From Gammaproteobacteria bacterium (lineage in GTDB: Bacteria > Pseudomonadota > Gammaproteobacteria > SZUA-229), in assembly GCA_041589615.1 (NCBI GenBank), contig JBFHVK010000001.1, positions 1 through 48,688 on the forward strand: 48,688 nucleotides of DNA. The letters run 5' to 3'. The notes beneath the pieces were generated by a model. The model made no database searches. It saw only the letters and a list, made by a program, of their open reading frames with translations, and was not told the origin of the DNA. The translations under genes were made by a program, and so were the position numbers. This document shows positions 1-48,688 of the stretch, piece after piece (within the stretch, counting starts at the first letter, position 1; every line of letters starts with the position of its first letter).

Positions 1-141
1 AAACAAGGAGGTGACATTGAGGGCAGCATAACGCAAATCATCGGTGCGTAATGCTTGCATGTCGGCGCTGCTAATAGCATTACTAATAGCAGCCACAATA
101 GCCTTGGCATCCCCAGCCCGCAGGCAGAACAAGTTGCCCTC
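1..141. repeat. Terminal overlap, copy 1: nt 1-141 are identical to nt 48548-48688 (circular-assembly closure)
   Basis: Compared base by base: both copies read aaacaaggaggtgacattgag...caggcagaacaagttgccctc. The overlap lies inside one continuous minus-strand reading frame, so it is a linearisation artefact rather than a genetic element. Confidence 0.95.
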
Positions 142-525
142 ACGCCCATCACCACACATCTTAGTGAGCATGTTTTCAAAAGCATAGTAGAGGACAATAA
201 GATTGAACAAGGTCTTATAATCTTCGTTCTGCATGTTCACATGCACATGAATACCAGCCCTCACTGACTCATCAATGACAGCCTCATTCATACGCATTGT
301 TCTGTAGATCGAAGTGATTCGATGCACAGCCTCTTTAAGCTCAACTGGGCCATCGAATACATACTCTGCATTCTCCTCCCCACGTAGGCTCCCATCATGC
401 TCACGGCGGAACCCAATATCTCTTACATCATGGGGGAGATTACGTCCCTCTACTTCCAACTCAAACCCAATATCTTTGTTGGTGTAGTAACGTGGCTGTA
501 CATTGAAAAGGTCTCTAATTAGCAT
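1..525 (-). CDS. Amidoligase_2-type (glutamine-synthetase-fold) carboxylate-amine ligase, 5' part; the gene continues through the junction into 48182..48547 (296 aa in total)
   Basis: ATG at 525-523 is preceded by GGAGGAGAG. Translation is MLIRDLFNVQPRYYTNKDIGFELEVEGRNLPHDVRDIGFRREHDGSLRGEENAEYVF...GIHVHVNM. The 525 nt are exactly 175 codons and the frame is continuous with ORF 48182..48679 through the overlap. The start overlaps the stop of 515..1069. Confidence 0.85.
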   Translation of the reverse strand, partial: MLIRDLFNVQPRYYTNKDIGFELEVEGRNLPHDVRDIGFRREHDGSLRGEENAEYVFDGPVELKEAVHRITSIYRTMRMNEAVIDESVRAGIHVHVNMQNEDYKTLFNLIVLYYAFENMLTKMCGDGREGNLFCLRAGDAKAIVAAISNAISSADMQALRTDDLRYAALNVTSLF

Positions 526-1069
526 AACTCTCCTCCAAATCTTCTTTCAAGTACTGTTTGTTTGGTAACAACTTAACAGCACCGTCAACAATCTCGCCAA
601 CAATACCTGACAGGAAGTTATGCACTTTCCCATCACCAGTAAGTGCCCATTCCTTCCCCCAAGCCACAGACCTTTTCTTGCCTAGGCACTCTAGGGCTTC
701 TTTGAATGTTGGGTAGTCTGACAACAGAGACTTGGCAACAATCCTGCTATTGAAAGGGACAACACGGCCAACTTCAATACTGGTGATTAGGGTATTGTCC
801 CCACGTAGTCCTTGCTTCCAACGGCGAACAGGTTTACGCATAACACTGTACACACGACCATTGTTATTACAGAAGCCAGTGCATAGGTTATCAAACTCAA
901 GTAAGTTTGCTGGGATAATTGCCTCTTCACCTTTTTCCAGATCAAGTATAGTGGCAGTGCCGTCCATACGTACCTGTAGCACAAAGACTGGGGAGTTGTT
1001 AGCAATGACAATACTGTCAGACAGTCTGTAGTTGGCGTACTCCCAATCTTCACCATAAGACCAACCCAT
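515..1069 (-). CDS. Hypothetical protein (184 aa), member of the amidoligase operon
   Basis: Long ORF whose start shares nt 1069 with the upstream stop (TAATG) and whose stop overlaps the downstream ATG. I recognise no motif. Confidence 0.7.
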   Translation of the reverse strand: MGWSYGEDWEYANYRLSDSIVIANNSPVFVLQVRMDGTATILDLEKGEEAIIPANLLEFDNLCTGFCNNNGRVYSVMRKPVRRWKQGLRGDNTLITSIEVGRVVPFNSRIVAKSLLSDYPTFKEALECLGKKRSVAWGKEWALTGDGKVHNFLSGIVGEIVDGAVKLLPNKQYLKEDLEESYAN

Positions 1070-1890
1070 TACACATACTCCTCTATTAAGCCAAAGTCAT
1101 CTAACCGACGATGTACCCTGGCCTCAAATGGCAACCCCTTAGAGGCATTGTCCAACACCCTTTTAACATCTTGAGGGTTAAGAAAACCATAAGAGTTAAG
1201 TGTCAACCCATCTTTAGCCCTGTTAAGCACACGCATTACTTGGCGGTACACCCAGCCCATGATTTTCTCATCCTTGAGCCAAGCATTGCTTAATACCCGG
1301 TACTCAAGTCCATAAGGCTTATAACGGAAGCTACCAAACGAACCATACAAAGCACGACGACGTTGGTCATTGTCATAATGGTTGAATCGAGCACCTAAAC
1401 AAATGTCCAAAGTTTTTACAAGTTCAATGCAGGTTTCACGGTGCCTGATATCATCAGCACTTGCGCCATTAGTCCAGCCAATGTGGATGTGACCAGCACC
1501 AGTACGGAATGGGGCTTGTGCATTGGGTCGAGGGTTCTCCTTGCCTTTATCCCAAGCATTAAAGTCAGGCTCACAGCCCAGCTCCAAAGCTTCTGGTGGC
1601 ATAGCAGCCATAATCTCTGCCGAGAAATCAGCAGATGGGGAGGCATCAAGCTCATACCCCGGCACCATGTCCTTAAGAATGGACATAACAGTTTTGATAT
1701 TGCCAATGAATTCTTCTTCATTCTTGGCAGGGTCGATGTTAAATTCAAGGGCCATGCCATCCACTTGGACAGCACCCTTATCAACCTTGAATGGATTCTT
1801 CTTATCCCCTTGGATTGCACCATGTGCTGATACAAAACCATTGGGGCCACGCATAAATACTTCTGGGTCACAACCGATAAGGAAGGTCAT
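1069..1890 (-). CDS. phiEco32-like COOH-NH2 ligase type 2 (GCS/glutamine-synthetase-like amidoligase)
   Basis: 273 aa beginning MTFLIGCDPEVF, with GMALEFNI and TGAGHIHIGW segments, recognised from memory as the phage COOH-NH2_lig family. SD AGGTGA lies 5 nt upstream. Confidence 0.8.
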   Translation of the reverse strand: MTFLIGCDPEVFMRGPNGFVSAHGAIQGDKKNPFKVDKGAVQVDGMALEFNIDPAKNEEEFIGNIKTVMSILKDMVPGYELDASPSADFSAEIMAAMPPEALELGCEPDFNAWDKGKENPRPNAQAPFRTGAGHIHIGWTNGASADDIRHRETCIELVKTLDICLGARFNHYDNDQRRRALYGSFGSFRYKPYGLEYRVLSNAWLKDEKIMGWVYRQVMRVLNRAKDGLTLNSYGFLNPQDVKRVLDNASKGLPFEARVHRRLDDFGLIEEYV

Positions 1891-1900
1891 TTATATTCAC

Positions 1901-3163
1901 CTAGTTCAAAACAAGTTGTTGGATGTAGGGTTTAACATTGTCTTCTTCTGCACATGACTTACAGAGGAAGTTCTCTTTATCAAACCAGATAATGTCATCA
2001 GCGTCTGCTGCATCTGGTGCTTGTGTGCACCAACAGCAACCACAAGAGGTAGCAAGATTGAATTGCTCCTCTGTCACCATCTCCCCGTCATAAATCTTGA
2101 AAAGCTCTGGCCCTTCTTCTTCAATCACTTCGATGATTGACCTCAAATCTACAGTCAGATACCCACCGCCAACATAATTGCAAGACTTAGCAGTTACTTT
2201 GAACAGGTTAGGGGAGGTAAGAAGATTTTCCCATTGCTCGCTGTTTTCTTGGGCAAAGATACGGAACATAATGTCCCGATCATTTTCCAAAGTAGCTTCA
2301 ACATAAGCTTGAGAATATTGACCAGTAGGCTTAACCTCTCGAACTACCTCTACCAAAGAAGGTACGCCCACATACTGCGATAGCTCTTTTGAGGACTTTT
2401 TTGGGAAGTTACTCACGTTACTGGTATTGGTATTGGCGGAGTAGGTCACGTATTTATAACCTTCCAACACCTGCTTATCAAACTCAATCATAGGACAGTT
2501 AGCGGCCAGTGCTTGAGGAACATTAAACTTGTAATACTCCATAGGAGCCACTTGCTTAATGTCACCATGCTTCAAGCCAACATTGGCTAAAGCTACGATA
2601 AGCATCCAATCCTCAGAGGCCCAGAACAATGTCTTACCGTCATTACTGCGCGTCATGTACATGGGTCGCTCAGCATTACGGGTGATGTTGAGGGTAGCAT
2701 CACGCTTGTCATACCAAGTGAGAGCAAAAGCACCATTAACCTTTTTGATGGTATCTTCAACGGTGTTCTTGTTCATGTGGTGATACAAGGCTTCACTGTC
2801 CACATCGAATTGGAGGTAATCATCCAATTGGTACATAGAGCGGAGAGTGCCATTATGGGCACCAATAATATGCTCAAACTCAAACGGGTGGGCATTGATC
2901 TTATTGATAGCACCTTGAGTGGCATAACGGTTATGCCCCAGCAGCAGGTTATGGCTGCCTTGTATGAACTTGTCCCACTTCTTACTGTCGAACAATTCCC
3001 AAGGCGTACCAACCTCCTTAATTACCTTGGCTTCCCCTTTCTGATTGACGCTGAGCACACCTGTGCTGTGCGGGCCACGTACTGTATCCAATTGAAGGAG
3101 GTATTTAAATGCCTTCTCCTCTTGAAAAGTAATACGCCCCATTACCCCTACCAAACCACACAT
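1901..3163 (-). CDS. Class II (Ntn) glutamine amidotransferase with a Cys-rich C-terminal domain
   Basis: N-terminus MCGLVG (Cys2 nucleophile), GHNRYATQG and AHNGTL motifs typical of PurF/AsnB/GlmS-type GATase domains. C-terminus carries SCGCCWC...CKSC, a possible zinc ribbon. Confidence 0.85.
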   Translation of the reverse strand: MCGLVGVMGRITFQEEKAFKYLLQLDTVRGPHSTGVLSVNQKGEAKVIKEVGTPWELFDSKKWDKFIQGSHNLLLGHNRYATQGAINKINAHPFEFEHIIGAHNGTLRSMYQLDDYLQFDVDSEALYHHMNKNTVEDTIKKVNGAFALTWYDKRDATLNITRNAERPMYMTRSNDGKTLFWASEDWMLIVALANVGLKHGDIKQVAPMEYYKFNVPQALAANCPMIEFDKQVLEGYKYVTYSANTNTSNVSNFPKKSSKELSQYVGVPSLVEVVREVKPTGQYSQAYVEATLENDRDIMFRIFAQENSEQWENLLTSPNLFKVTAKSCNYVGGGYLTVDLRSIIEVIEEEGPELFKIYDGEMVTEEQFNLATSCGCCWCTQAPDAADADDIIWFDKENFLCKSCAEEDNVKPYIQQLVLN

Positions 3164-3558
3164 TATTTAACCTCCTTCTTTACAAAACGACCTTTTGCAT
3201 CACGCGCAGGAGGGTCAAGGTTGATTGTTGACAGCTTGCCTACCTTACCAAGTGGACAGTAAGCCAGAATAAGTTGTGTTTCTGGGTGCTTGCCCTTGTA
3301 CATAGGTGGGGATAAGGTAAATCCACACTCAAGCAGCGCTTTGATGCCCACTTTTTGTTGGTTATTTACAGTGGCGACAAGAACTGCCAGTCCATCATCA
3401 ATTGCTTCTTGCTTTCTCATCTCAATAGCATTCTTGAGCTGTTGCAAATCAACTGTATTATTGTTGAGAGGACGTATGCCGTACTCCGCAGTTTTTGTTT
3501 GACCAAACCCCGCAATAATGTTAGCAGAGCAGCAACCCGGAAAATCAAAAACCTTCAT
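3163..3558 (-). CDS. Hypothetical protein (131 aa), possibly a small GNAT-like fold
   Basis: ORF with SD GGAGG upstream of the ATG at 3558. The stop shares nt 3163 with the next start (TAATG). The segment NNQQKVGIKALLECGF weakly resembles GNAT motif A. Confidence 0.65.
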   Translation of the reverse strand: MKVFDFPGCCSANIIAGFGQTKTAEYGIRPLNNNTVDLQQLKNAIEMRKQEAIDDGLAVLVATVNNQQKVGIKALLECGFTLSPPMYKGKHPETQLILAYCPLGKVGKLSTINLDPPARDAKGRFVKKEVK

Positions 3559-3576
3559 TTGAAACCTCCAAAAAAT

Positions 3577-3605
3577 TTTCTAACCTAAATTAAGACCTTT
3601 AGCAC
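3577..3605 (-). promoter_or_regulatory. Conserved promoter-like motif, copy A (minus strand GTGCTA-N17-TAGAAA)
   Basis: Minus strand reads GGGGTGCTAAAGGTCTTAATTTAGGTTAGAAAATTTTTT. It sits in the only sizeable gap (3559..3636) of the amidoligase operon. Copies at 6888..6916 and 31757..31785 have the same hexamers and the same 17-nt spacer. Confidence 0.55.
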
Positions 3606-3636
3606 CCCATAACGGGGACTGCCCAATAATGGTCTA

Positions 3637-4260
3637 TTACAATGAAATCAGCTTATCAACACACTCAAAGAAATACTTACGGCAATCATCCAAGTGTGCG
3701 CCATTAAACTCTGGGTGTGGTTGGAAACAAAGGGACTTGCTGAATGGGTACAGTACTACCTCAACATCGTAGTAACTTTCACACCAATCATCGTCACCTA
3801 AGTGCTCACGATCTTTAGACAGCTCACCACCATGTGCTAAGATAATGGCTTTACCCAAATCAGGACGCATCATCTGGTGGTGTGTGGATGAAACCTCGCC
3901 CAAGTAGGTACTATCACTGTAACTGTACAGTGGGTGAGTGCCACCAATAGCATGTTTATCTACATTCTGCCACATCTTACCGCCAGACATGACATTAAGG
4001 AACTGACCACCACGACAAATGCCTACCATTGGCTTCTTGCTAGCAAGGCATTGTTCAAACACCTCAGCTTCTGCTAAGTCACGGCGCAGGTTGCACATAG
4101 TTGTGCGGTGCTTTTCTTCCCCATACATCACAGGGTCAACATCTTCCCCACCAGTGAACTGTACAATGTCGGCCTCTTCAACACTGCTCACAATTTCATG
4201 GCCAGCATTTGTCCATAATTTTGAATAGGCATAAGAGCCATCAACAATATAAACTTTCAT
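3637..4260 (-). CDS. Class I glutamine amidotransferase-like / peptidase C26 gamma-glutamyl hydrolase
   Basis: 207 aa with MVGICRGGQFLNV (nucleophile elbow) and STHHQM, as in PuuD/C26-type enzymes. Confidence 0.8.
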   Translation of the reverse strand: MKVYIVDGSYAYSKLWTNAGHEIVSSVEEADIVQFTGGEDVDPVMYGEEKHRTTMCNLRRDLAEAEVFEQCLASKKPMVGICRGGQFLNVMSGGKMWQNVDKHAIGGTHPLYSYSDSTYLGEVSSTHHQMMRPDLGKAIILAHGGELSKDREHLGDDDWCESYYDVEVVLYPFSKSLCFQPHPEFNGAHLDDCRKYFFECVDKLISL

Positions 4261-5111
4261 AGTACACCCATCTCCTTAAGTTTTTCTTTAACACCCAAGA
4301 TGCCCTTGGGGTTTGGGTTAAAGATTCCAATACGGCGTGCAACATCTTGCATGGCATATTTAAATACACCATCAAACTTCAATGGCTGGTTTCCTGCTAG
4401 GTCATCTAAGAGACTACCATCAGCGTCACCCTCGATAAACATTTTTGAGTAGCCTTGGTAGACACGAAACTCATTGTAAGGTTTGTCAAAACGAACTTTA
4501 ACCGGAGTATTGTTTATAAAGTTATCAAACACCTTTCCGGTTAGGAAGCCCCCATCAAATGCCATGTGCCCACCGCCGTAATAAATGTGGAACGTCCCAT
4601 CTACAAGCTTGACATTATGCGCCAATACAAAAGCAACATGCTTATTGATACGATACTTACGGACAAGTTCATACCAACAATCAAGTTGATAAGGGAACTC
4701 CCATAACAAGCGAGTGGCAACACATGCTCCACCTAGATAAGTACCTGCCACGTTGGGATTCATAATGGCATAGCCATGCTTGAGCATGGTCTTACCTACC
4801 TTACTAATGAAGGCATCTTTGTAAGGGCTTTCTTTAGCCAGCCAGCTGAGATAAAGGGCACATTTATCAGGCCAGTCTTCTTTGCCCCTTAATTCCTCTC
4901 CGTTATAATCTTCTTCATAGCGAACCTGAAAGAAGTTGACTATTAACTTGAGTGGTGTGCCACCACGATGACCATTTAACCCAGCATGACATGCTGTATT
5001 AGGTGAGGCTTTGAACTTATCGTCCTCACTGATAGAGCCCCAGTAGGCACATTGATCAGTAGCAACTTTAACATCCTGATTTTTCAGCACTTTGTTCACA
5101 TAGCTAAACAT
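4257..5111 (-). CDS. Hypothetical protein (284 aa), distal member of the amidoligase operon
   Basis: Long ORF with a 4-nt ATGA overlap to 3637..4260. No motif recognised. Confidence 0.7.
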   Translation of the reverse strand: MFSYVNKVLKNQDVKVATDQCAYWGSISEDDKFKASPNTACHAGLNGHRGGTPLKLIVNFFQVRYEEDYNGEELRGKEDWPDKCALYLSWLAKESPYKDAFISKVGKTMLKHGYAIMNPNVAGTYLGGACVATRLLWEFPYQLDCWYELVRKYRINKHVAFVLAHNVKLVDGTFHIYYGGGHMAFDGGFLTGKVFDNFINNTPVKVRFDKPYNEFRVYQGYSKMFIEGDADGSLLDDLAGNQPLKFDGVFKYAMQDVARRIGIFNPNPKGILGVKEKLKEMGVL

Positions 5112-5289
5112 TACCTACCTCCATTTTCATTTCGACGTAGTGGATACATGACTCTTGGTAGAGCCGCTTGCATTTACGATAGTGGTCTAATGCAGCGTCG
5201 GCTTGTACACCGGGTTTAGCATTAAGCCATTGCTTGTAGCGCTTGTTCTTCACGTTGAACAGGCGCTTAAGTTGAGTTAACTCATCCAT
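5104..5289 (-). CDS. Hypothetical protein (61 aa)
   Basis: ORF with an 8-nt overlap to the downstream gene; basic and helical-looking. Confidence 0.55.
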   Translation of the reverse strand: MDELTQLKRLFNVKNKRYKQWLNAKPGVQADAALDHYRKCKRLYQESCIHYVEMKMEVGNV

Positions 5290-5311
5290 GCCTACCTCAC
5301 AATAAAAATAC

Positions 5312-5614
5312 TTAAACTAACACACGCCACAAACTTTTATCTAATTCAGCAGGGTGAAAACTACGACCATCCCCACGGACAGGTTCCTCACGTGAGCACC
5401 CACAATAACCACAGGTTTTGGTCACTGTCTTAGTGGCTTTTTCTAGCTCGGCGTAATGCAGCACAACCATGCCAGACCCGTACTCCCGTACAAGGTAATC
5501 CTCAACAGACTTAGGGTCTTCACTTGTCAATAGCCTGATGACCTTAGTTCTACTTGGGGTGTCTACAAGGTGAAACTTTACTTCATAATGTACTAAAGGC
5601 ATGGTTAACCCCAT
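5312..5614 (-). CDS. Hypothetical protein (100 aa)
   Basis: ORF immediately downstream of the tRNA pair; contains CGYCGC. Confidence 0.6.
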   Translation of the reverse strand: MGLTMPLVHYEVKFHLVDTPSRTKVIRLLTSEDPKSVEDYLVREYGSGMVVLHYAELEKATKTVTKTCGYCGCSREEPVRGDGRSFHPAELDKSLWRVLV

Positions 5615-5629
5615 TTTAATGTGTGAAAT

Positions 5630-5705
5630 TGGTACGGCCAGTAGGATTTGAACCTACGACCTGCCCCTTAGGAGGGGGCTGCTCTATCCGCTGAGCTATG
5701 ACCGT
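5630..5705 (-). tRNA. tRNA-Arg (anticodon CCU, reads AGG), CCA encoded
   Basis: Folded by hand as ACGGTCA-TA-GCTC-AGCGGATA-GAGC-A-GCCCC-CTCCTAA-GGGGC-AGGTC-GTAGG-TTCAAAT-CCTAC-TGGCCGT-A-CCA. This gives 76 nt, a 7-bp acceptor stem with one G.U pair, and U8 present. Confidence 0.9.
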
Positions 5706-5719
5706 ATGTTTGAATGGCT

Positions 5720-5815
5720 CTGTAAGCCCCTGTAAGGGGCATAGGAGAAGAGATAGGCATATAACCTGCCCTACCCTACACACTCACCCTTACAAGAGCT
5801 TACAGAGGCTTACAG
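5720..5815. repeat. Inter-tRNA spacer with 17-nt inverted arms (CTGTAAGCCCCTGTAAG / CTTACAGAGGCTTACAG) and 10-bp-phased CTTACAG units
   Basis: Arms at 5720..5736 and 5799..5815 are complementary at 16 of 17 positions. An inner hairpin CCCC-TGTAA-GGGG lies at 5727..5739. A paralogous degenerate copy lies at 6790..6886. Confidence 0.75.
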
Positions 5816-5816
5816 T

Positions 5817-5893
5817 TGGTTCCCGGCACAGGACTTGAACCTGTAACCTATAGCTTAGAAGGCTATTGCTCTATCCAATTGAGCTAGTCGGGA
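5817..5893 (-). tRNA. tRNA-Arg (anticodon UCU, reads AGA), CCA encoded
   Basis: Folded by hand as TCCCGAC-TA-GCTC-AATTGGATA-GAGC-A-ATAGC-CTTCTAA-GCTAT-AGGTT-ACAGG-TTCAAGT-CCTGT-GCCGGGA-A-CCA. This gives 77 nt with one A.C mismatch at acceptor pair 6:67. Confidence 0.85.
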
Positions 5894-5899
5894 GTATTA

Positions 5900-6319
5900 T
5901 CACACCCCCTTAGGACGTTCGGTGAGGGTTAGTTTCCAGTCGGTGACTTGATCTTTCTTAATCACCATAAGCAAGGGTAAAGGGTAGCAACTACAATCTT
6001 TGTAAGACCACCTACTAACTCCGATGGAAGGTTTACCCGAGTAAAAGAATATTCGACCGTCCTCATCCATTGCGGCATAGTTAATGGCAGTATGAACATA
6101 GCCCCAAGGAATATCTAACGGCTGTGGTTCAGGTTGTTTCACACGATACTGGAAATCACCACTAAAACGGGGGTTGGTGGAGTTAGTCCAACCTGCCCCG
6201 TGGTTAAATTCTAATTTTCCCCCGTCAACAAACGCCTTAAAAACGTCAAGGTGTTTTCCAAGAGCGTGTTTAGTGAAGGAGCCTTTCAGAAAAGCATCAA
6301 TATATTTTTGTTCAATCAT
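5900..6319 (-). CDS. Hypothetical protein (139 aa)
   Basis: I prefer the ATG at 6319 (MIEQKYIDAF), preceded by GGGAGAG and overlapping the upstream stop (ATGATTGA), over the track start at 6352. Confidence 0.65.
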   Translation of the reverse strand: MIEQKYIDAFLKGSFTKHALGKHLDVFKAFVDGGKLEFNHGAGWTNSTNPRFSGDFQYRVKQPEPQPLDIPWGYVHTAINYAAMDEDGRIFFYSGKPSIGVSRWSYKDCSCYPLPLLMVIKKDQVTDWKLTLTERPKGV

Positions 6320-6542
6320 TACCACTCTCCCGCTCAAAGATTGCCCCATCATTACAACGGACAGTGATTGTGCCGTTGTTGTCCTTATTGTAGGTTTTCA
6401 CTTCGTGGTTGTTCTTGCAAACAAGCAAGAATTCATCAACGTCATCCACGGTAAAGCCCACATCTGAATAGAGGCCAGTTAGTACAGCACCACAGGCTGC
6501 AATAACCAGCCCAACAAACAGGCCAAAAACTAAATCACTCAT
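6312..6542 (-). CDS. Small membrane protein (76 aa)
   Basis: N-terminal hydrophobic helix LVFGLFVGLVIAACGAVLTGL; ATGA overlap with the upstream gene. Confidence 0.6.
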   Translation of the reverse strand: MSDLVFGLFVGLVIAACGAVLTGLYSDVGFTVDDVDEFLLVCKNNHEVKTYNKDNNGTITVRCNDGAIFERESGND

Positions 6543-6787
6543 ATCGAATACCCCTTAGCAAACATGCACAAATGGAAAGACTCACCGTTCAGTGAGTTAT
6601 GCTTATGGAGAAATAAAATACAGCGTAGGCCAGCCCTGTCAGAACTTTCCTGCCAATAGTCATTGGTGATGTGCTGTTCCTTTGGCTCTGGCACATGCTT
6701 GTACATGTCAAACAGGCCACTTAAAGCCCATATAGCCATACCAGTGCCAACAAACACCAACACTTCTCCCATCCCTACTTTGTTCAT
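6539..6787 (-). CDS. Small membrane protein (82 aa)
   Basis: Hydrophobic N-terminus GEVLVFVGTGMAIWALSGLF; SD AGGAG lies inside the repeat just upstream. Confidence 0.6.
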   Translation of the reverse strand: MNKVGMGEVLVFVGTGMAIWALSGLFDMYKHVPEPKEQHITNDYWQESSDRAGLRCILFLHKHNSLNGESFHLCMFAKGYSI

Positions 6788-6789
6788 AG

Positions 6790-6886
6790 CCCTGTAAGCT
6801 CCTGTAAGGCCGTATAAGGCCGTTAAATAGGCTTACCTATCCTACCCTACAGGCTAGCCTTTCCAAACGCTTAAACAGGCTTAAAT
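6790..6886. repeat. Degenerate paralogue of the 5707..5816 spacer, with 10-bp-phased CTGTAAG-like units and a CCTACCCTACA core
   Basis: Aligned by eye: CTGTAAGCTCCTGTAAGG, ATAGGC, CCTACCCTACA and GCTTAAACAGGCTTAAAT correspond to the elements in 5720..5815. Confidence 0.65.
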
Positions 6887-6887
6887 T

Positions 6888-6916
6888 TTTCTAATGTAAA
6901 TTCAGCCCACTAGCAC
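6888..6916 (-). promoter_or_regulatory. Conserved promoter-like motif, copy B (GTGCTA-N17-TAGAAA)
   Basis: Minus strand reads GGGGTGCTAGTGGGCTGAATTTACATTAGAAAAATTT, lying downstream of 6948..7085 and upstream of 6539..6787. Confidence 0.55.
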
Positions 6917-6947
6917 CCCGTAACTGGCCTGCTTCAGAATGGAGCTA

Positions 6948-7085
6948 CTATGCCAGCAGCTTCTTATAGCTGCTCAACTTCTCTTGAGCCAATGCCTTAG
7001 TGTCAGCGGTATCAACACGCACACCATTAACCATCACCCACCAACACACACGGGCAGGACTTCTCACCACTTCAAAGGACACCAT
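6948..7085 (-). CDS. Hypothetical small protein (45 aa)
   Basis: I prefer the ATG at 7085 (MVSFEVVRSPARV), preceded by GGAGG at 6-nt spacing. The longer track ORF would overlap 7072..7311 extensively. Confidence 0.5.
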   Translation of the reverse strand: MVSFEVVRSPARVCWWVMVNGVRVDTADTKALAQEKLSSYKKLLA

Positions 7086-7311
7086 GGTAAACCTCCAAGG
7101 ATGCTTCAATAAGCTGTTTGTTCCACTTGTGCTGGCATGTCTCAGCCATGCTGACAAGACGTTCCTTTGGCATGTCTTTCAACATGTTAGCAACGTCGAT
7201 GAATGCCGCTGTCTTAGTAAACTCCCCTTTAGATTCATGCTCATCATAATCAAAGATGATGGTAAGGATACGGGCAGGGAGTTTATGCTTGTTTGTGATG
7301 AGAGTTTGCAT
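7072..7311 (-). CDS. Hypothetical protein (79 aa), first gene of a transcription unit
   Basis: ORF preceded by AAGAGAAA and by the palindromic motif at 7339..7366. Confidence 0.6.
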   Translation of the reverse strand: MQTLITNKHKLPARILTIIFDYDEHESKGEFTKTAAFIDVANMLKDMPKERLVSMAETCQHKWNKQLIEASLEVYHGVL

Positions 7312-7338
7312 AATATTTCTCTTTTTTCCTGTAAAAAA

Positions 7339-7366
7339 GGGTCATATAAGTATATCTAGTATACTT
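7339..7366. promoter_or_regulatory. GGGTCATATAAGTATATCTAGTATACTT: copy of the GGGKC(T)ATATAAG motif, containing palindrome AAGTATA-TCTAG-TATACTT
   Basis: Perfect 7-bp inverted arms at 7348..7354 and 7360..7366. Related plus-strand strings lie at 9137..9152 and 16868..16890. Confidence 0.5.
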
Positions 7367-7519
7367 CTGCGGAGCAGGCTTCCCATTCTTGTTTATTGTT
7401 TTTCTTCTTTCTCTTGCTTCTCTTAAGAATAGTTCTGTTAGAACAAACAAGATCGAAGAGCTAAACACTTAAGGATAATATATAAATACACATACAATGC
7501 TTAAGCATTCAGACAAGAC

Positions 7520-7546
7520 AAAGCCCCTAATACTTCTAGGGGCTTT
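7520..7546 (-). terminator. Intrinsic terminator after the first early unit (stem AAAGCCCCTA / TAGGGGCTTT)
   Basis: 10-bp perfect stem with a 7-nt loop, followed on the minus strand by TTTGTCTTGTCT. It lies 19 nt downstream of the stop at 7565. Confidence 0.7.
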
Positions 7547-7564
7547 ATCATTTACAACATTAGG

Positions 7565-8113
7565 TTATGCCGCTTGTTGGTCTTGTTCTTCAACCCCTTC
7601 AATCATTTCTTCAAAGTTACACAAGGCCAGCACTTGCTTAATGGTGACATCATTAACATGCACTTGAATCTTATCAGCATCATCGGGGTTTGCCTCAACC
7701 ATTTTCATAGCCTTAGCATGTTGAGCTAACACATTCTTCAAGGCTTGCTCAAGATCAAAACCTTTATAGGGATTCTTTTTCTTCAAGTCCCACCACATAG
7801 TGGCCTTGGCCGCTTCAAAGTGTTCTTTGACATGTTCCTTACCAGACCATCCGCTGAAACCTTTACCATCTTCAACCTTGAGCCCACCGAATTGAACAAA
7901 CCATTCGACTAAGGCTTGGCCGTTGATAGTATTACCTAACCCATCGACCAAGGTTTGTGCGAATGTCCAATCACCATGATCGTAGGCATGTTTGATAGTT
8001 GCGACCGCTGCAATCTGTACCATATCACGCGCTTTGTTCACTGAATTAACAGCACGCTTTTGGATACGTGACAGCTCAGCAGCATCTTTAGCAAAGATAT
8101 ATTTGATAGCCAT
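7565..8113 (-). CDS. Hypothetical early protein (182 aa)
   Basis: I prefer the ATG at 8113 (MAIKYIFAKD), preceded by GGAGGT. The track start at 8197 would overlap the upstream gene. Confidence 0.65.
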   Translation of the reverse strand: MAIKYIFAKDAAELSRIQKRAVNSVNKARDMVQIAAVATIKHAYDHGDWTFAQTLVDGLGNTINGQALVEWFVQFGGLKVEDGKGFSGWSGKEHVKEHFEAAKATMWWDLKKKNPYKGFDLEQALKNVLAQHAKAMKMVEANPDDADKIQVHVNDVTIKQVLALCNFEEMIEGVEEQDQQAA

Positions 8114-8138
8114 GTTTGTTACCTCCAGTTTGTTTGGG

Positions 8139-8372
8139 TTATGCCTTAGCAGTTGGGATATTCTTATACCAACCAGCCAAGTTATGCTTAGCACCACGAT
8201 AAACGTGGGTATTCATGCGCTTAAGCTCTTTGCGTGACTCAATGGTGTTAAGCTCATTAAGTACAGCAATCTTTTTGAACTTGTTTGCAATCTTGCTACC
8301 CTTTGGACGCATGTCTTTTAGTGTGCCATCGGGGTTAACAGGGTTAATGCGTGGTTTCTTTTGGAAGGCCAT
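8139..8372 (-). CDS. Basic early protein (77 aa), first gene of the minus arm
   Basis: I prefer the ATG at 8372 (MAFQKKPRINP), preceded by GAGAGGTGA, over the GTG at 8381. The protein is Lys/Arg-rich. Confidence 0.6.
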   Translation of the reverse strand: MAFQKKPRINPVNPDGTLKDMRPKGSKIANKFKKIAVLNELNTIESRKELKRMNTHVYRGAKHNLAGWYKNIPTAKA

Positions 8373-8421
8373 TTTATTCACCTCTCTAGATTTTTAATAA
8401 GCACTCATTGAATGCCTATTA

Positions 8422-8439
8422 AGAATCTAGATAGATTCT
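8422..8439. promoter_or_regulatory. Perfect palindrome AGAATCTA-GA-TAGATTCT, about 50 nt upstream of the first early gene
   Basis: Read directly; 8-bp arms. The position is operator-like. Confidence 0.45.
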
Positions 8440-9136
8440 CGCTGGCTATGGTTGGCCAGACTTAGCAGGGCCAGTGCCTAAGCACTAACAACTACTCCCC
8501 AGTTATCCTCTAGCTATCCACGGTTGCTAATCGCTTCAATCTAGCCATTGTATGGGCACTAGGTAGGCCCCCTAACTACTCTTCTTCCCCTAGCAGGCTG
8601 GGGTAATAACATAGGCCGTATTTAGCCGAGGACTACAAACTGTCCTGAAGTCATCAAACCTTTCGTTTAGCCACCATCCCAAAGGGACAGCTATCAAACT
8701 ACTTAGCCCAACGCCTAACACTCTCTGTTAAGTACAGTTATCGACCGTTGCCGCTAGTCAGTAGGCCCGTTTGCCTTTGACGCTTACCATTCTACAGCAA
8801 TCTAACTTATTGTCAACCTAGCATCTTGTGTTAGACATTGGCCCTAAGGCTTACCCTAACGTGCAATGGCTGGCGTGTACCGTTATCCGCCTGACTAAGC
8901 CCCCTAGGCTTAAGCCGTCACACTTGACGCTTGATTGACATACTACACAAGGTAGTTAAGTTAGTCAACCACCTGTTAGCTGTCTGGCTAGGCCATGTCG
9001 CTAATCAGTGAGGCCATCCTACATAGACGGGATAAGGTAGTCAACACTGGTAATTTATACAGGCATTGTTAGGCGTATATATAGAAGCACTCGCGTACGC
9101 ACAGACAATACCCACTATACATACTCGCCCCGTCAG

Positions 9137-9152
9137 GGGCATATAAGCTAGA
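9137..9152 (+). promoter_or_regulatory. GGGGCATATAAGCTAG: copy of the GGGKC(T)ATATAAG motif, facing the structural arm
   Basis: Shares GGGNCATATAAG with 7339 and 16868 and is preceded by hairpin GCCCC-GTCA-GGGGC (9127..9140). Confidence 0.4.
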
Positions 9153-9364
9153 GCCCAGTAAATACGGGGGTGTGATGTGGTAGATGGTGGGGGAGTGTAA
9201 TACACCCCGTCCCTACCTGGGCCAATACCATGTATACACATGTATACTTATGGATGAATCCTGAATGTCTCGCCCGAAGGGCTTAATAAGCTGTACATAC
9301 GTACAGCGAGTATGTCCTAAGGGGGTACAAGGGGGGAAGGGGGTTAGTTCTATAGTGCAATACC

Positions 9365-9430
9365 CCTCAAAAATTTCTAGGGGAAATTACAGTCCCCCTA
9401 AAATTTCTAATAGAAATTACCCCCTCTCAA
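9365..9430. promoter_or_regulatory. Tandem ~31-nt units CCCCTMAAAATTTCTA..GAAATTAC, two copies, the second holding perfect palindrome AATTTCTA-A-TAGAAATT (9402..9418)
   Basis: These units share the TAATTT-N-TAGAAAWWTTT core of motif copies A-C (minus-strand reading). A TTGAGA hexamer lies 15 nt upstream of the second TAGAAA. Confidence 0.5.
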
Positions 9431-9601
9431 GAATTCCCAGTATGTTCCTGTCGTTAAGCTTAAGGATAAGCTTATGTTCCCTAAGAGTAGCACGAAGTTA
9501 TTCCTAAGGGTAAACGAAGAGGAGCTATTAAGTTGGCTAGCGCCAACGAGAATACCTATAGAATTAGGTATGCAATAAACGACGAAGCGATAGCTGAGTC
9601 A

Positions 9602-9615
9602 TAAGACATGTCTTA
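9602..9615. promoter_or_regulatory. Perfect 14-bp palindrome TAAGACATGTCTTA abutting the SD of the first tail-fibre gene
   Basis: Read directly. SD AGGAG starts at 9615 and the ATG is at 9628. Confidence 0.4.
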
Positions 9616-9627
9616 GGAGAAAACCGA

Positions 9628-10251
9628 ATGACCGACATTACTTTAAGCACTATCACAAGTGGGTATAACGTCTCTAAGATCAATACCAACTTTGAGAAGC
9701 TTGAGCAAGTGGTTAATGATGAAGTGTTACACCGAGTAGGTGGTAATAACGTCATGAACCAACACTTGGATATGAACGGCTATTCTATTCTTAATATTGG
9801 TGTTGATGAGAACTCACCAGATAGCTTCATTACATTAGGAGCTGCTGACCTGAGGTATTACAATGTCAGTGGGGATAAGCTCACTGGCCCTATGGATGTG
9901 GATGGGCAACAAGTAGTTAACCTACCAGCCCCTACACTTTCTCATCAAGCTGCTAGAAAGCAGGATGTGGATACAGTACAAGCTAATGCGGAAGCTCTTG
10001 TTGCCGCTGAAGCTGATGTACGATTGGCAACAGATAATAGCTTACAGAATCAGATTCTTGGGCTAGTGGCTGTACCAGCCAGTCCCTTTGCTGCTGTATC
10101 ATGGCATGACCAAGTAATTAACGACACCTTCACTATTCCCCCTAACAAGAATGCTTGGTCATTTGGCCCAGAGCTTTCTATTGGCGTAGGTGGTGAAGTG
10201 GTGGTCGGTAGTGGTTCCTTTTGGACTATTGCGAATGGAGAGTTAGTTTAA
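9628..10251 (+). CDS. Tail fibre / receptor-binding protein, proximal part
   Basis: 207 aa with SD TAGGAGAAAA. The segment NVMNQHLDMNGYSILNIG..LRYYN resembles N-terminal regions of phage fibre and spike proteins (my recognition). It is the first gene of the plus arm. Confidence 0.65.
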   Translation: MTDITLSTITSGYNVSKINTNFEKLEQVVNDEVLHRVGGNNVMNQHLDMNGYSILNIGVDENSPDSFITLGAADLRYYNVSGDKLTGPMDVDGQQVVNLPAPTLSHQAARKQDVDTVQANAEALVAAEADVRLATDNSLQNQILGLVAVPASPFAAVSWHDQVINDTFTIPPNKNAWSFGPELSIGVGGEVVVGSGSFWTIANGELV

Positions 10252-10661
10252 TGTCTAAGATTAGAGTAGATGAAATTGCTACGTTGGATAATAGCATTAT
10301 TGTCCCACTAGCAGAGGTTGTATTGGATGCTGATCTAGCTCCATACATCAAACCAGATAGTCCTACAGGGGCTATTACAATTCCTGTCGGCACTACAGCA
10401 GAACGTCCTGCTAATGGTGTCGGTAAGTTTCGATATAACAGTACGCTAGGAAGGCCAGAGGTTAATAATGGCACCTCTTGGGGTAGCTTAGGTGGTGCCA
10501 CTGGTGCCGGTAGTGATGATGTGTTCTATGAGAACAGTAAGACCATCACAGCAAGCTACACTGTTTCAACCAATAAGAATGCAATGACAGCAGGGCCGGT
10601 AACATTAGATGTTGGTGTGTCGGTAACAGTACCGGCTGGCAGTGCATGGACAGTGGTATAA
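10251..10661 (+). CDS. Tail fibre protein
   Basis: I prefer the ATG at 10251 (MSKIRVDEIATLD) with a TAATG junction. The motif IPVGTTAERPANGVGKFRYNSTLGRPEV..WGSLGG is common in fibre proteins. Confidence 0.65.
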   Translation: MSKIRVDEIATLDNSIIVPLAEVVLDADLAPYIKPDSPTGAITIPVGTTAERPANGVGKFRYNSTLGRPEVNNGTSWGSLGGATGAGSDDVFYENSKTITASYTVSTNKNAMTAGPVTLDVGVSVTVPAGSAWTVV

Positions 10662-12743: not shown

Positions 12744-13247
12744 ATGATCGAGAAAGAAAAACTTTTAGATGCTATGGGCCGTCCATTGACTCAGAGCTTG
12801 TTCTTAGAGGTAGGTTACTCTGACTATGCAGTGTACACCTTAAAGGACTATGACCATGAGTATAAGGGCAAGGTATACCCATCGCTTAAGAAGCTCTATC
12901 TGGCCGAGGAAGACCCCACAGAGTATAACTTTGCCACTAAGCACCTGTTAGGTTGGCAGCATTGGAAACGTCTTAATGAAAACAAAGTGCTGGCTAAGCA
13001 TATTGATGAATGGCGAGAAGAGCTTGAGTTGAAGATTCGTTCACAAGCTGTACGTGACATGGTTAGTATGTGTGCCAATGAGGGCGGTAACTTCTCTGCT
13101 GCTAAGTTCTTAGCTGAACGTGGCTGGGATAAGCGACAAGCTGGTCGCCCATCTAAGGCAGAGAAAGAGCGTCATTTACGAGTGGAAGAAAGGATTAACG
13201 AAGAGTTCAGTGCTGACATTAAGCGCATGGGCGACTATAAGAGGTAA
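12744..13247 (+). CDS. terS: Candidate small terminase subunit
   Basis: 167 aa directly upstream of terL, with NFSAAKFLAERGWDKRQAGRPSK, a helix-like DNA-binding tail. There is no SD next to the ATG (see the mini-ORF finding). Confidence 0.55.
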   Translation: MIEKEKLLDAMGRPLTQSLFLEVGYSDYAVYTLKDYDHEYKGKVYPSLKKLYLAEEDPTEYNFATKHLLGWQHWKRLNENKVLAKHIDEWREELELKIRSQAVRDMVSMCANEGGNFSAAKFLAERGWDKRQAGRPSKAEKERHLRVEERINEEFSADIKRMGDYKR

Positions 13248-13250: not shown

Positions 13251-14858
13251 ATGGCTGAAGAAGATTGGTTGGAGGAGGCCAAAAGAAAACTCCAGAGAAT
13301 GCCTAAAGAAGCTCTTGAGGTAAGACAGAGGGCTCTTGAAGACTTATACTTCTTTGCTAAGCTAGTAAACCCCGGATACATGTACGGGGAGGTTCACCGA
13401 GAAGTATTTGCTTGGATGCAAGAGTATACTTTGTTCGGGTATAAGAAGAGCATCACTGGCAACAAGCTAATCATGCTACCTCGTGCTCACCTTAAATCTC
13501 ACATGGTAGCTACTTGGTGTGCTTGGATTATCGCTAGGCACCCTGAGGTGACAATGTTATATGTGTCAGCTACAGCTAGCCTAGCTGAGACCCAGTTGTA
13601 TGCAATTAAGAACATCTTAGCCTCTTCTGTGTTTAACAGGTTCTTCCCTGAGTACATTCACCCACAAGAGGGTAAGAGGGAGAAGTGGTCTTCAACAGCC
13701 CTGTCTGTAGATCACCCACAGCGCCGTGAGGAAGGTATTCGAGATGCCACTATCAGTACAGCAGGCCTAACCACAAACACCACAGGATGGCACGCTGACG
13801 TCATTCTAGCTGATGACTTGGTAGTCCCTGAGAATGCTTACACTGAAGATGGTCGTGACTCTGTAGCTAAGAAAGCATCTCAGTTCACCTCTATCCGTAA
13901 CGCAGGTGGCTTCACAATGGCTTGTGGTACACGATACCACCCAGCAGATATTTATGCCACTTGGCGGGAACAGTTCTATGACGAGTATGATGAAGAGGGT
14001 GTTAAGATTGACACCTTGCCTGTGTGGGAGATCAAGGAGTTTGCTGTAGAGTCAGATGGTATTTTCATCTGGCCTAGGGTTGTACGGGAGGATGGCAAAG
14101 CATTTGGTTTTAACCAGAGCGTACTGTCACGTATTCGAGCTGAGTATATTGACCGAGTGCAGTTCTTTGCTCAGTATTACAATAACCCAAATGACCCCGG
14201 CTCTGATAGGATTAGTAGGGAGAAGTTCCAATACTTCAACCAGCGGCTACTCAAGAAGCAAGGTGGTACTTGGTATTACAATGACAGGAAGCTTAACGTA
14301 TATGCAGCGGTGGACTTTGCGTTCTCCTTGTCCCGTAAAGCTGACTACACTGCCATTGTAGTTATTGGTGTTGACTATGCTGGTAACATCTATGTACTTG
14401 ACATAGACAGATTTAAGTCTGATAAGATTGTGGAATACTTTGAACACATCAAAGAGCTACACTCTAAATGGTGCTTTAGGAAGCTTAATGCAGAAGTGAC
14501 AGTTGCACAGAGAGTGATTGTCAATGGTATTAAAGACTACATCAAGAAAGAGGGTATGACCCTATCAGTACAAGACTTCCAACCCACAAGACGAGAGGGC
14601 AGTAAGGAAGAGCGTATTGCAGCTATCCTTGAGCCACGTTATGATGAGATGATGGTGTGGCACCATGAAGGTGGATGGACGCATGTACTGGAAGAAGAAC
14701 TTGTGCTTGCAAGGCCCGCACATGACGATATTAAAGATAGTTTGGCAAGTGCTGTGAGTATCTCTACAGCCCCTGCAAAAAGCTCATCTAGCTCAGCTAT
14801 GGAGCTTCTGATGGCAACAAACAAGAGATCGAGATTTGGAGGAGTTCAATTTAGATGA
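13251..14858 (+). CDS. terL: Terminase large subunit
   Basis: 535 aa. It has the ATPase segment LPRAHLKSH...ILADDLVVPEN (Walker B-like) and an RNaseH-like nuclease part VYAAVDFAFSLSRKADYTAIVVIGVD. It lies upstream of the portal gene. Confidence 0.9.
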   Translation: MAEEDWLEEAKRKLQRMPKEALEVRQRALEDLYFFAKLVNPGYMYGEVHREVFAWMQEYTLFGYKKSITGNKLIMLPRAHLKSHMVATWCAWIIARHPEVTMLYVSATASLAETQLYAIKNILASSVFNRFFPEYIHPQEGKREKWSSTALSVDHPQRREEGIRDATISTAGLTTNTTGWHADVILADDLVVPENAYTEDGRDSVAKKASQFTSIRNAGGFTMACGTRYHPADIYATWREQFYDEYDEEGVKIDTLPVWEIKEFAVESDGIFIWPRVVREDGKAFGFNQSVLSRIRAEYIDRVQFFAQYYNNPNDPGSDRISREKFQYFNQRLLKKQGGTWYYNDRKLNVYAAVDFAFSLSRKADYTAIVVIGVDYAGNIYVLDIDRFKSDKIVEYFEHIKELHSKWCFRKLNAEVTVAQRVIVNGIKDYIKKEGMTLSVQDFQPTRREGSKEERIAAILEPRYDEMMVWHHEGGWTHVLEEELVLARPAHDDIKDSLASAVSISTAPAKSSSSSAMELLMATNKRSRFGGVQFR

Positions 14859-31756: not shown

Positions 31757-31785
31757 TTTCTAGCAGAAATTACGTCCTTTAGCAC
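31757..31785 (-). promoter_or_regulatory. Conserved promoter-like motif, copy C (GTGCTA-N17-TAGAAA), orphaned between a gene end and the terminator
   Basis: Minus strand reads GTGGGTGCTAAAGGACGTAATTTCTGCTAGAAAAATTTTTC. It starts 3 nt after the stop of 31789..31992. Confidence 0.5.
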
Positions 31786-47317: not shown

Positions 47318-48182
47318 CTAGTACAACATTAGCATCATTATTAAATGCAATATTGTTGAAGTTTGCTTGCAACCAATCCTTAGGAATATCTCTTGGTTTT
47401 TGCATTACTAGCACAGCTTCTGGAGGGGCCAGATACTCGGCAATAGCATTAGCATAACTATCAACAGTACTGCCTTCTAAGCCCGGTGCTGTGTTAACTT
47501 CCAGCACATAGGCTTGCCCACGCTTCTCGTTGAAGATAACATCCACTGCACCAAACACCAAACCTAATGCTTCTACAGCTTGGATAGCGTTGTAGATGAC
47601 AGAACGTGGCACTTCACCAAGGGCTTCCCCTTTAGCAAACACAAAACCATTGGCGTAGCTCCGTACCTTCCAATTGATCTGGTCATCAGGTACATCCATA
47701 CGTCGTGCCTTACGACGTACATCAATCACCTTACCATTGAAAACATGCACACGATACTCAGACTTCTTAGGGATATACATTGTGTACAATGGGGCATCAA
47801 CAAGTTGGCCACCCTCAGTTGCAATGACAATACCCTCCCCTGAATGGCCATTTAACTTCTGGCGGCAAACAACTGCACAGCCACCACGTAGCCACACCTC
47901 GGCTATCAAGGGGTCAGTTGCATAGTCTGGGATTGCCACATCACCTGCTCCCAAAGTATCTAAGCACACAAGCTTATCACTTGCCTTGCCCACTGCCTCT
48001 GGGGAGTTGATTACCTTGGCACCAATGACATTCTCAGGGAGGTTACTAGAGCCCCAGTTAATCACTGTCTTTTCTTCAGTGCCCACAAACTTACTGTTCT
48101 TATGGCGGATTAACTTGGCACCGATAGCTTCTGCCAAAACTTTAGCTGAGGCTGAGCCTGCTTTATACGGATAGATAAACAT
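47295..48182 (-). CDS. ATP-grasp (RimK-like) carboxylate-amine ligase
   Basis: 295 aa with KLNGHSGEGI, EYRVHVFNGKVIDV and AVDVIF...YVLEVNTAPGL, typical ATP-grasp strands. Confidence 0.85.
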   Translation of the reverse strand: MFIYPYKAGSASAKVLAEAIGAKLIRHKNSKFVGTEEKTVINWGSSNLPENVIGAKVINSPEAVGKASDKLVCLDTLGAGDVAIPDYATDPLIAEVWLRGGCAVVCRQKLNGHSGEGIVIATEGGQLVDAPLYTMYIPKKSEYRVHVFNGKVIDVRRKARRMDVPDDQINWKVRSYANGFVFAKGEALGEVPRSVIYNAIQAVEALGLVFGAVDVIFNEKRGQAYVLEVNTAPGLEGSTVDSYANAIAEYLAPPEAVLVMQKPRDIPKDWLQANFNNIAFNNDANVVLGDVDDYR

Positions 48183-48688
48183 TAGAAGTCCTCCAAAGGT
48201 TCTTCATAAACAACCCCATCACGCTTGGGGAATTTTAAACCACCAATTTCAATGTACTGGAATAGCTTGTCCCAATCTGCTGCATAAGCAATGTGCTGGG
48301 CCAGACGCACCCCTTTCATTACATCCTTCTCCCATCCATCATACAGTTTGAGGTACTTAAACATCTGCCCAAACACACGTTGAGTGAAACCTTCAATCTC
48401 GTTAACTGAGATGTGCTCAACAACCTCAGTTGGGTTATTGAAAGTACGGGCAGCCTCACGTAATTGATGTACCAGCTTTACCCAACGAACAACCTCCATC
48501 ACCTTAGGTGTGGTACGCATGGCACGGAACTCCACGGAACCATACTTAAACAAGGAGGTGACATTGAGGGCAGCATAACGCAAATCATCGGTGCGTAATG
48601 CTTGCATGTCGGCGCTGCTAATAGCATTACTAATAGCAGCCACAATAGCCTTGGCATCCCCAGCCCGCAGGCAGAACAAGTTGCCCTC
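48182..48688 (-). CDS. Amidoligase_2-type ligase, 3' part (continuation of 1..525 through the junction)
   Basis: 507 nt are exactly 169 codons in frame with 1..525 after removing the 141-nt overlap. The segment VEFRAMRTT is typical of the family. The stop shares nt 48182 with the ATP-grasp ATG (TAATG). Confidence 0.85.
   Translation of the reverse strand, partial: EGNLFCLRAGDAKAIVAAISNAISSADMQALRTDDLRYAALNVTSLFKYGSVEFRAMRTTPKVMEVVRWVKLVHQLREAARTFNNPTEVVEHISVNEIEGFTQRVFGQMFKYLKLYDGWEKDVMKGVRLAQHIAYAADWDKLFQYIEIGGLKFPKRDGVVYEEPLEDF
48548..48688. repeat. Terminal overlap, copy 2 (identical to 1..141)
   Basis: See copy 1. Confidence 0.95.

Follow-up and report, generated by a model that had tools for sequence, protein, structure and literature searches.

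We have analysed the junction region 8373-9627 of a 48,688-nucleotide (nt) stretch of DNA (the window), which is the whole of one contig (C1) from a 3.3-Mb metagenome-assembled genome (MAG) of 638 contigs. The window holds the complete, circularly assembled genome of a Zobellviridae podophage near Paundecimvirus, and 8373-9627 is the gap without open reading frames (ORFs) that separates its leftward early arm from its rightward structural arm. Going rightward from the first early gene, the gap holds a conserved structured leader RNA, three leftward sigma-70-like promoters, a predicted direct terminal repeat (DTR) flanked by conserved boundary blocks, and tandem units and palindromes that lead up to the Shine-Dalgarno (SD) sequence of the first structural-arm gene (Table 1). 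On comparative sequence evidence, the leader is a new covariation-supported RNA family about 400 nt long, and compensatory changes maintain its structure across about 20 related phages. In its termini and early promoters the genome adds one more ordinary member to an architecture already known; what was not expected is the leader RNA family and the small protein linked to it.

Table 1. Features in and around the junction; positions are those of the window
Feature	Position	Strand	Details
First early gene, small basic protein, 77 amino acids (aa), MAFQKK...	8139..8372	-	SD GAGGTG 8380-8385
Leader RNA, conserved and structured, ~410 nt	8373..8782	-	From an inferred start ~7 nt past the -10 box to the start codon
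Terminal long hairpin of the leader	8382..8439	-	Arms 8434-8409 / 8407-8382, 26 nt, 85%; abuts the SD
Invariant 5' element of the leader	8763..8776	-	AGGCAAACGGGCCU; 4-bp stem AGGC/GCCU, loop AAACGG
Helices of the leader	8776-8773/8766-8763; 8731-8727/8719-8715; 8697-8690/8674-8667; 8570-8567/8557-8554; 8496-8487/8472-8464		
Conserved blocks of the leader			AACyGUAyGUCCC..GGGGGCG, GUAAGUAG, GCGAACCUUGAAUG, GAAAGC, GGAUUGUAGA, GGnnn-UAGCnUG-nnnCC, GAAGUCCCGUAAAGGGC
Putative promoter P_E1	8789..8816	-	TTGACA-16-TAGAAT, 11/12
Putative promoter P_E2	8940..8968	-	TTGACT-17-TAGTAT, 9/12
Putative promoter P_E3	9016..9044	-	TTGACT-17-TAGGAT, 9/12
A/T-rich block ATTTATACAG	9053-9062		Just upstream of the P_E3 -35 box
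Hairpin GCCCC-GTCA-GGGGC, then ATATAAGCT	9127..9150	+	Junction-associated module, sole copy in the genome
Conserved block left of the repeat	9165..9200	+	(A)ATGTGGTAGATGGTGG...GTGTAA; aligns with O4, L009, L010, L023
Predicted DTR, 159 bp (+/-1 at the right boundary)	9201..9359		TACACCCCG...CTATAGTGCA, by homology; contains tandem CATGTATACA x2, palindrome CTGTACATACGTACAG and G-tracts 9322-9344
Two tandem 30-nt units	9364..9423	-	Each TAATTT-N4-TAGAAATTTT; dyad AATTTC-N5-GAAATT
Copies of the tandem-unit motif	3577-3605, 6888-6916, 31757-31785, 9364-9423	-	Anchors outside the gap: 3592, 6903, 31772
Upstream region of the first late gene	9430..9627	+	Palindromes 9457-9474, 9552-9571, 9602-9615; SD AGGAG 9616-9620
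First structural-arm gene, tail-fibre N-terminal/adaptor-like, 207 aa	9628..10251	+	phrog_18671, tail-fibre N-terminal matches
Repeat TTGACGCTT	8777 and 8924		TTGACA at 8935
Repeats AAGGTAGT, TAGTCAAC and TTGTCAAC	8949 and 9034; 8962 and 9038; 8810		
Repeat ATGTATAC	9230 and 9240		
Palindromes (start positions)	8422, 9291, 9552, 9602		
AATTTC/GAAATT	9372/9383 and 9402/9413		

The genome and its ORF-free gap

The first and last 141 nt of the window (1-141 and 48548-48688) are identical, and the contig is therefore a circle closed by the assembler, with 48,547 unique bases. A minus-strand ORF runs in frame over the join (525..1 joined to 48688..48182). The genome has the architecture of Zobellviridae (Paundecimvirus-like), with structural and replication genes homologous to those of PA11 and O4. 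The large terminase subunit, TerL, shares 78% amino acid identity with that of the Pseudomonas phages PA11, O4, K4, TC6 and IME180 (Zobellviridae, Paundecimvirus) and is ~72% identical to that of Vibrio and Salinivibrio relatives; no relative closer than the PA11/O4/K4 group was found in the viral contig collection. PHROG scans identified the terminase large subunit, portal, major head protein, tail proteins and a 1580-aa internal virion protein, together with a primase-helicase, a split family-A DNA polymerase, a ribonucleotide reductase and an amidoligase cassette. No RNA polymerase was found among the 20 ORFs scanned, which included all of the largest ones, with some small ORFs outside the scan. 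Genes at 1-8372 and 31.8-48.7 kb are read leftward and those at 9628-31.7 kb rightward, TerS and TerL lying at 12744-13247 and 13251-14858, respectively. A gap of 1.3-2.4 kb occurs at the equivalent place in the eight relatives that span it. At the DNA level a search of the region against phages returned only one 49-nt chance-like match, and a fibre-protein scan of viral contigs returned one distant locus only.

The gap is bounded by the ATG codons at 8372 (minus strand, SD GAGGTG) and 9628 (plus strand). An earlier note on this DNA had called it the largest non-coding stretch of the genome, and it is, because ORFs occupy the other apparent gap, at 30.5-32 kb. Inside 8373-9627 itself, three ORFs of 43-80 aa were rejected as coding, having no PHROG family match. 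Every repeat and palindrome that the note had listed is present where it was placed (Table 1). The note had further regarded the abundance of CTAG as unusual, in a class of genomes that tends to avoid this tetramer. Its count of 13 is correct, as is the excess over base composition: the gap carries 10.4 copies per kb, compared to 3.3 per kb in the remaining genome, and has the top count among genome windows of 1255 nt, where composition alone predicts 4.8. Dinucleotide-preserving shuffles, however, contain 10.5±2.8 copies, with 239/1000 reaching 13 (p≈0.24), and a second-order Markov estimate gives 12.5. The surplus is thus due to a non-coding composition rich in TA, AG and CT. Genome-wide, 171 copies were observed against ~187 expected by composition, which is no avoidance, and CTAG enrichment was rejected as a signal.

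The description of the gap as packed with palindromes holds. It contains 20 perfect hairpins (stem >=6, loop <=8) against 3.7±2.2 in shuffles, none of 300 shuffles reaching 20, and it ranks first of 119 genome windows; hairpins with a stem of 7 are likewise in excess (10 vs 1.0 in shuffles). Short direct repeats (k=8-10), with which the note had also called the gap packed, are not above the level of shuffles or of the remaining genome; chance predicts repeated 9-mers like TTGACGCTT. The only direct repeats with meaning are a 31-nt promoter pair and a 30-nt tandem pair.

Putative early promoters and the leader RNA

The note's suggestion that early promoters lie here is supported by three leftward sigma-70-like sites, P_E1 to P_E3, which are the reverse complements of its TTGTCAAC/TAGTCAAC repeats. 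P_E1 is the strongest and keeps a fixed position, at a constant distance to the leader, in at least 19 related sequences. Together with the sequence that follows it, P_E1 is conserved in O4, PA11, six viral contigs and further metagenome contigs; the carriers named, with relatives cited by L numbers, are O4, PA11, L009, L010, L015, L016, L107 and metagenome loci. P_E2 and P_E3 make up the 31-nt direct repeat (71% identity). Several leftward TTGACA boxes can be seen by eye in the P_E2 zone of L009, L010 and O4, and the A/T-rich block upstream of the P_E3 -35 box is shared, as CTGTATAAAT(A/T)A(C/A)CAG, with O4, K4 and L010. In relatives, a gene of ~49 aa with a good SD lies among the early promoters, upstream of the leader promoter (L010 ~3800-3945; O4 gp67, L003 3876-4025); this window lacks a counterpart.

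Comparison with relatives and a scan for structured RNA had both been proposed in the earlier note. Conserved blocks were found in the gap region, and alignment, covariation and folding revealed a structured RNA that makes up about a third of the gap and that the note had not mentioned. Homologues of the leader were collected from a metagenome scan and a viral scan and were aligned using L-INS-i and MAFFT. The layout behind the promoter is the same in every relative: an invariant 13-mer, then 350-460 nt without an ORF, then the first early gene. The 13-nt core, AGGCAAACGGGCC, is identical in 17/17 aligned homologues (alignment A2), in which mean column identity is 55%, and the 14th base of AGGCAAACGGGCCU is U in 16 of the 17. 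This element always lies 8-20 nt after a promoter of the form TTGACA-N16-18-TAnAAT. Its pairing as a 5' hairpin is unproven, because invariance leaves no covariation possible. Elsewhere in the alignment, conserved blocks alternate with hairpins of changing sequence.

RNAalifold predicted 27 pairs, 16 of them with compensatory changes. For the pair test, helix 2 was lengthened by two pairs to give 29 pairs in five helices and 14 sequences; the test covered the five helices in good register, and outside this set the P2 hairpin and several central hairpins are visible by eye. Double changes were found at 17/29 pairs, a value reached by 2/500 shuffles; for the other four of the five pairing measures, the observed value was reached by none of the 500. 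Paired cells amounted to 88.3%, compared to 70.9±1.6% in shuffles, and the covariation score was 0.462, compared to 0.165±0.021 in shuffles and 0.08-0.16 in slid controls. Sliding the partners by 1-3 columns lowered pairing to 35-49%. G.U pairs occupy 61/400 cells, one pair being G.U in all 14 sequences, and the opposite strand would therefore pair in only 73%, which makes the element specific to the strand that is read from the promoter. The single-sequence fold of the leader gave z=-2.4.

In all 10 folded homologues the leader closes at its 3' end with a long hairpin (~14 to >20 bp) just ahead of the SD, and the sequences of these hairpins are unrelated. The long hairpin has one arm in common with a short hairpin in front of it: here the short one is the palindrome 8422-8439, which overlaps the terminal hairpin and is thus a mutually exclusive alternative to it, and in relatives it is AAACCC-GAAA-GGGUUU. 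By eye, a GGUUUA segment of the relatives has two possible partners, one UAAAC copy upstream of it and another downstream. It may be speculated that the hairpins with a shared arm form a conformational switch.

A covariance model built from the 5' 140 nt of the leader found the element in L018, which was absent from the training set (E=9e-8), and matched L222 and L095 weakly. The more distant L095/L189 (IMGVR_UViG_2706795980_000001, 45.4 kb) keeps a P_E1-type promoter and the invariant 13-mer; its leader is much diverged (covariance-model E=3e-5) and its first protein, MAFESK, is divergent. The model found no leader in Klebsiella phage vB_KpnP_Klyazma (OP125547; PMC9960094; hereafter Klyazma) or in Vibrio-type loci. 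With membership of an Rfam family taken as a covariance-model match at E<=1-5, Rfam 15 gave only chance-level matches in the window, and only tRNAs and chance matches in six homologous loci. Among the papers searched, none contains the leader motif.

The first early gene is linked to the leader, behind which a gene for a small basic protein is always found. Homologues of the form MAFQKK...EARKALKKMNDxVYRG stand there in 12 of the relatives examined, O4 and L015 carrying a variant. The protein has no usable Pfam or PDB match, and PHROGs of unknown function match it weakly. We tentatively propose, as a possibility well short of an even chance, that the leader RNA and the MAFQKK protein form an undescribed RNA-protein module that controls host polymerase or early mRNA in phages lacking their own RNA polymerase. 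Possible modes are processive antitermination, autoregulation or RNA-primed replication.

The earlier note had also listed an origin of replication among the candidates for this region, and nothing was found in support of this part. Direct repeats are at chance level and were rejected as iterons, and GC content in the gap (0.44-0.46) is like that of the rest of the genome. A related proposal is that the element at 8373-8782 acts as DNA or as a replication primer, within a transcription-activated or RNA-primed origin, and not as the leader of an early mRNA. The primary origins of T7 depend on promoters, which counts for this proposal, as do the strong conserved promoter that reads into a structured, conserved non-coding segment and the GC-skew minimum located here. 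We consider it very unlikely: the strand-specific G.U pairs and the hairpin abutting the SD accord with an mRNA leader, neither AT-rich unwinding elements nor iterons exceed chance, and the skew switch is at the point where the genes change orientation.

Probable genome ends and the predicted terminal repeat

The note had placed candidate genome termini in the gap. This claim stands by homology to the ends of deposited records, to which both boundaries align, and not as a direct demonstration. The record of phage O4 (NC_031274) has an exact 74-bp repeat at both ends, and the independent record of K4 (MW929175) is alike (TACACCCACC...TTAGGTGCA). The boundaries of these repeats, with their flanks, align to window positions 9201 and 9359, which predicts a DTR of 159 bp here, with ~85 extra internal bases. 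O4 and K4 also resemble the window in gene order, in a junction free of ORFs that separates the early arm from the tail-fibre gene, in the P_E1 promoter and homologous leader RNA, and in an ATGTGG block, the TACACC repeat start, G-tracts, the GTGCA end and a AAATTTCT block. They differ in that their proteins are 46-78% identical to those of the window and their non-coding DNA is unalignable outside short blocks; O4 differs further in small genes among its early promoters.

The order of elements at the junction is a left block AATGTGGTrGTGATGG..GTGCAA, the TACAC repeat start, G-tracts GGGG..GGGGG..GGGG, the TGCA repeat end (invariant in the alignment) and then CTCAAAAATTTCT-N4-6-AAATT. These boundary sequences are conserved in the window, L009, L010, L014, L023/L024 and L052, and no other non-coding DNA is as well conserved across the family as the boundary blocks. 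The two boundaries are also alike (AGTGTAA|TACACCCC at 9194-9208 and AGTGCA|ATACCCC at 9354-9366), both carrying the motif GTGYAA|TAC(A)CCC, and the likeness recurs in O4, L009, L010 and L023. Such paired boundaries fit a single putative terminase cut motif used twice. Immediately right of the repeat lies the family-wide block AAAAATTTCT..GAAATT (9364-9423), and all the relatives examined, Klyazma included, have CTCAAAAATTTCT..AAATT straight after the repeat boundary. The metagenomic contig L024 has the homologous TACACC as its very first bases, numerous contigs of 47-50 kb have an end 60-1100 bp upstream of the fibre gene, and homologues of the gene at 9628..10251 adjoin the genome end in O4, K4, TC6, IME180 and Klyazma. 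The records of IME180, TC6 and GP100 are uninformative as to ends because they start arbitrarily inside the repeat zone, and the TC6 paper gives neither termini nor promoters. A viral scan for near-identical phages with a 19-mer from inside the repeat returned nothing. An 18-mer over the right repeat boundary gave two matches in a genome scan, a Prolixibacteraceae MAG and a gammaproteobacterial single-cell contig (L301, L302), which were rejected as chance, with no other similarity.

In the family, DTRs sit in the ORF-free zone between the gene arms and measure 74-711 bp (PMC9960094, PMC6775973). The repeat of Klyazma, at 711 bp, was confirmed by PhageTerm and Sanger sequencing (PMC9960094); those of other members measure 74-138 bp, as quoted in PMC9960094 from the RIO-1, VpV262 and O4 papers, and those of cobaviruses 159-173 bp by PacBio (PMC9960094, PMC6775973). 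Headful packaging of a circularly permuted genome, with no fixed ends and with the gap merely a divergent promoter region, would suit a contig that was assembled as a circle and a relative, IME180, that was deposited as circular. It is highly improbable, as TerL is of the T7-like group, fixed terminal repeats are present in every family member whose ends have been mapped, O4 and K4 have exact ones, contig ends cluster at this place, and the boundary blocks are conserved as described above.

We consider it likely that a T7-supergroup podophage, one with no RNA polymerase among its scanned ORFs, has its concatemer junction and early-control region here. The virion DNA would be linear, with the 159-bp direct repeat 9201-9359 at its ends, and the terminase (TerS/TerL) would cut concatemers at the two similar GTGYAA|TAC(A)CCC motifs. 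Recognition signals would be ATGTGGTAGATGG on the left, the G-tracts inside the repeat, and AAAAATTTCT..GAAATT on the right. Once the DNA has been injected, host RNA polymerase would start at P_E1-P_E3, near the right genome end, and transcribe the early arm leftward. The leader would act in cis on the early transcript, with the invariant 5' hairpin as a contact for a protein or for the polymerase. Its role may be in processing or stability at the long terminal hairpin, like that of the RNase III sites of T7 early RNA, or alternatively in the control of elongation or translation.

Several points weigh against this reading. A scan of 7500-10500 found four promoter matches where shuffles contain 5.8±2.2, and the early promoters are therefore singled out only by strength and conservation. 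Transcription of the leader is itself a prediction, and helix 3 is in a shifted register in this phage's own sequence. The 159-bp repeat is predicted by homology to the ends of the O4 and K4 records, and the K4 record may follow the orientation chosen for O4. Finally, the verified 711-bp repeat of Klyazma is situated on the left side of the conserved block, with its end 6 nt short of TACACC, so boundary use varies within the family.

This last point gives rise to an alternative in which the ends are here and a long repeat, as in Klyazma, lies to the left of TACACC and covers the early promoters and perhaps part of the leader. Klyazma belongs to the same family, has its junction at the same position, shares the TACACC block and everything rightward of it (TACACC...GGGGG...GGTGCA|TTGACC...TTTTCT..AAAATT, upstream of the fibre gene), and carries leftward TTGACA boxes inside its repeat; a circular assembly, moreover, would collapse either kind of repeat. 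We nevertheless regard this arrangement as unlikely for the present phage. O4 and K4 are far nearer relatives of the window than Klyazma is. Both boundary motifs of the O4 type are retained here and resemble each other, and L024 starts at TACACC and runs rightward, making TACACC a left end and not a right end.

Known systems and neighbouring elements

The left end of T7 carries a 160-bp terminal repeat, the host promoters A1-A3 and a long leader that ends at the RNase III site R0.3. The window is similar in having a short predicted direct terminal repeat, three predicted strong host-type promoters beside a probable genome end, and a leader of several hundred nt before the first early gene, with a long hairpin just upstream of that gene. 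T7 differs in that its promoters are at the opposite end relative to the structural genes and in its phage RNA polymerase, none having been found here, whereas the leader of the window has several helices, is structurally conserved and carries an invariant 5' element. The nut sites of lambda (boxA/boxB) and the put sites of HK022 are RNA elements of 20-75 nt in early-operon leaders. They share with our leader a small hairpin at the start of the early transcript and reliance on host RNA polymerase, and lambda N, like the MAFQKK gene, is a small basic protein encoded first in its operon (PL). They differ in size and complexity, the leader here having ~410 nt and at least six helices, and there is no sequence similarity and no Rfam match. 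The invariant hairpin (4 bp, 6-nt loop) and the small basic first gene may recall lambda N/nut-type antitermination, by analogy only.

Early transcription and genome cutting have hardly been studied in Zobellviridae, which are widespread podophages of marine, soil and clinical origin that lack their own RNA polymerase. The base-level predictions made here, of two terminase cut motifs, a terminal repeat and three early promoters, permit such genomes to be linearised and annotated correctly from metagenomes. The leader RNA family, with its invariant 14-nt head and linked small protein, provides an experimental handle in the cultivable phages PA11, O4, K4 and TC6.

The tandem units beside the repeat belong to a motif, (T/G)AATTT-N4-TAGAAA(A/T)(A/T)TT, that has five copies in the genome, all of them intergenic and on the minus strand. 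Each of the copies at 3592, 6903 and 31772 is preceded by GGGTGCTA with a 17-nt sigma-70-like spacing, and the copy at 31772 faces the 3' ends of plus-strand genes of the lysis region. These TAATTT-type units could be promoters or operators of a phage-specific class. In T7, the phiOR promoter reads across the junction, and by analogy the units beside the repeat could read leftward across it.

In O4/K4, L009, L010, IME180 and TC6, the module made up of a hairpin and ATATAAGCT stands, in one to three copies, after the early promoters and ahead of the terminal repeat; with one copy in the genome of the window, hairpin plus TATAAG was rejected as a genome-wide promoter class. Within the predicted repeat, the plus strand has three or four runs of 4-10 G, at 15-25 nt to the left of the right boundary. 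The runs at 9322-9344 are conserved in the family (L014, L047, L052, L065, L072, O4) and might form a G-quadruplex. In relatives, the corresponding place upstream of the first late gene is occupied by a hairpin and, after it, an A/T-rich stretch of the TAAACG type.

Phage O4 carries an annotated HNH endonuclease gene (L002 123-590) between its terminal repeat and the fibre gene; the gene is absent from K4, IME180, TC6 and the window, which suggests a mobile insertion beside the genome end. In the early arm of the window, two tRNA-Arg genes lie on the minus strand at 5630-5705 and 5817-5893 (anticodons CCT and TCT), and O4 has a single tRNA-Arg at the matching place.

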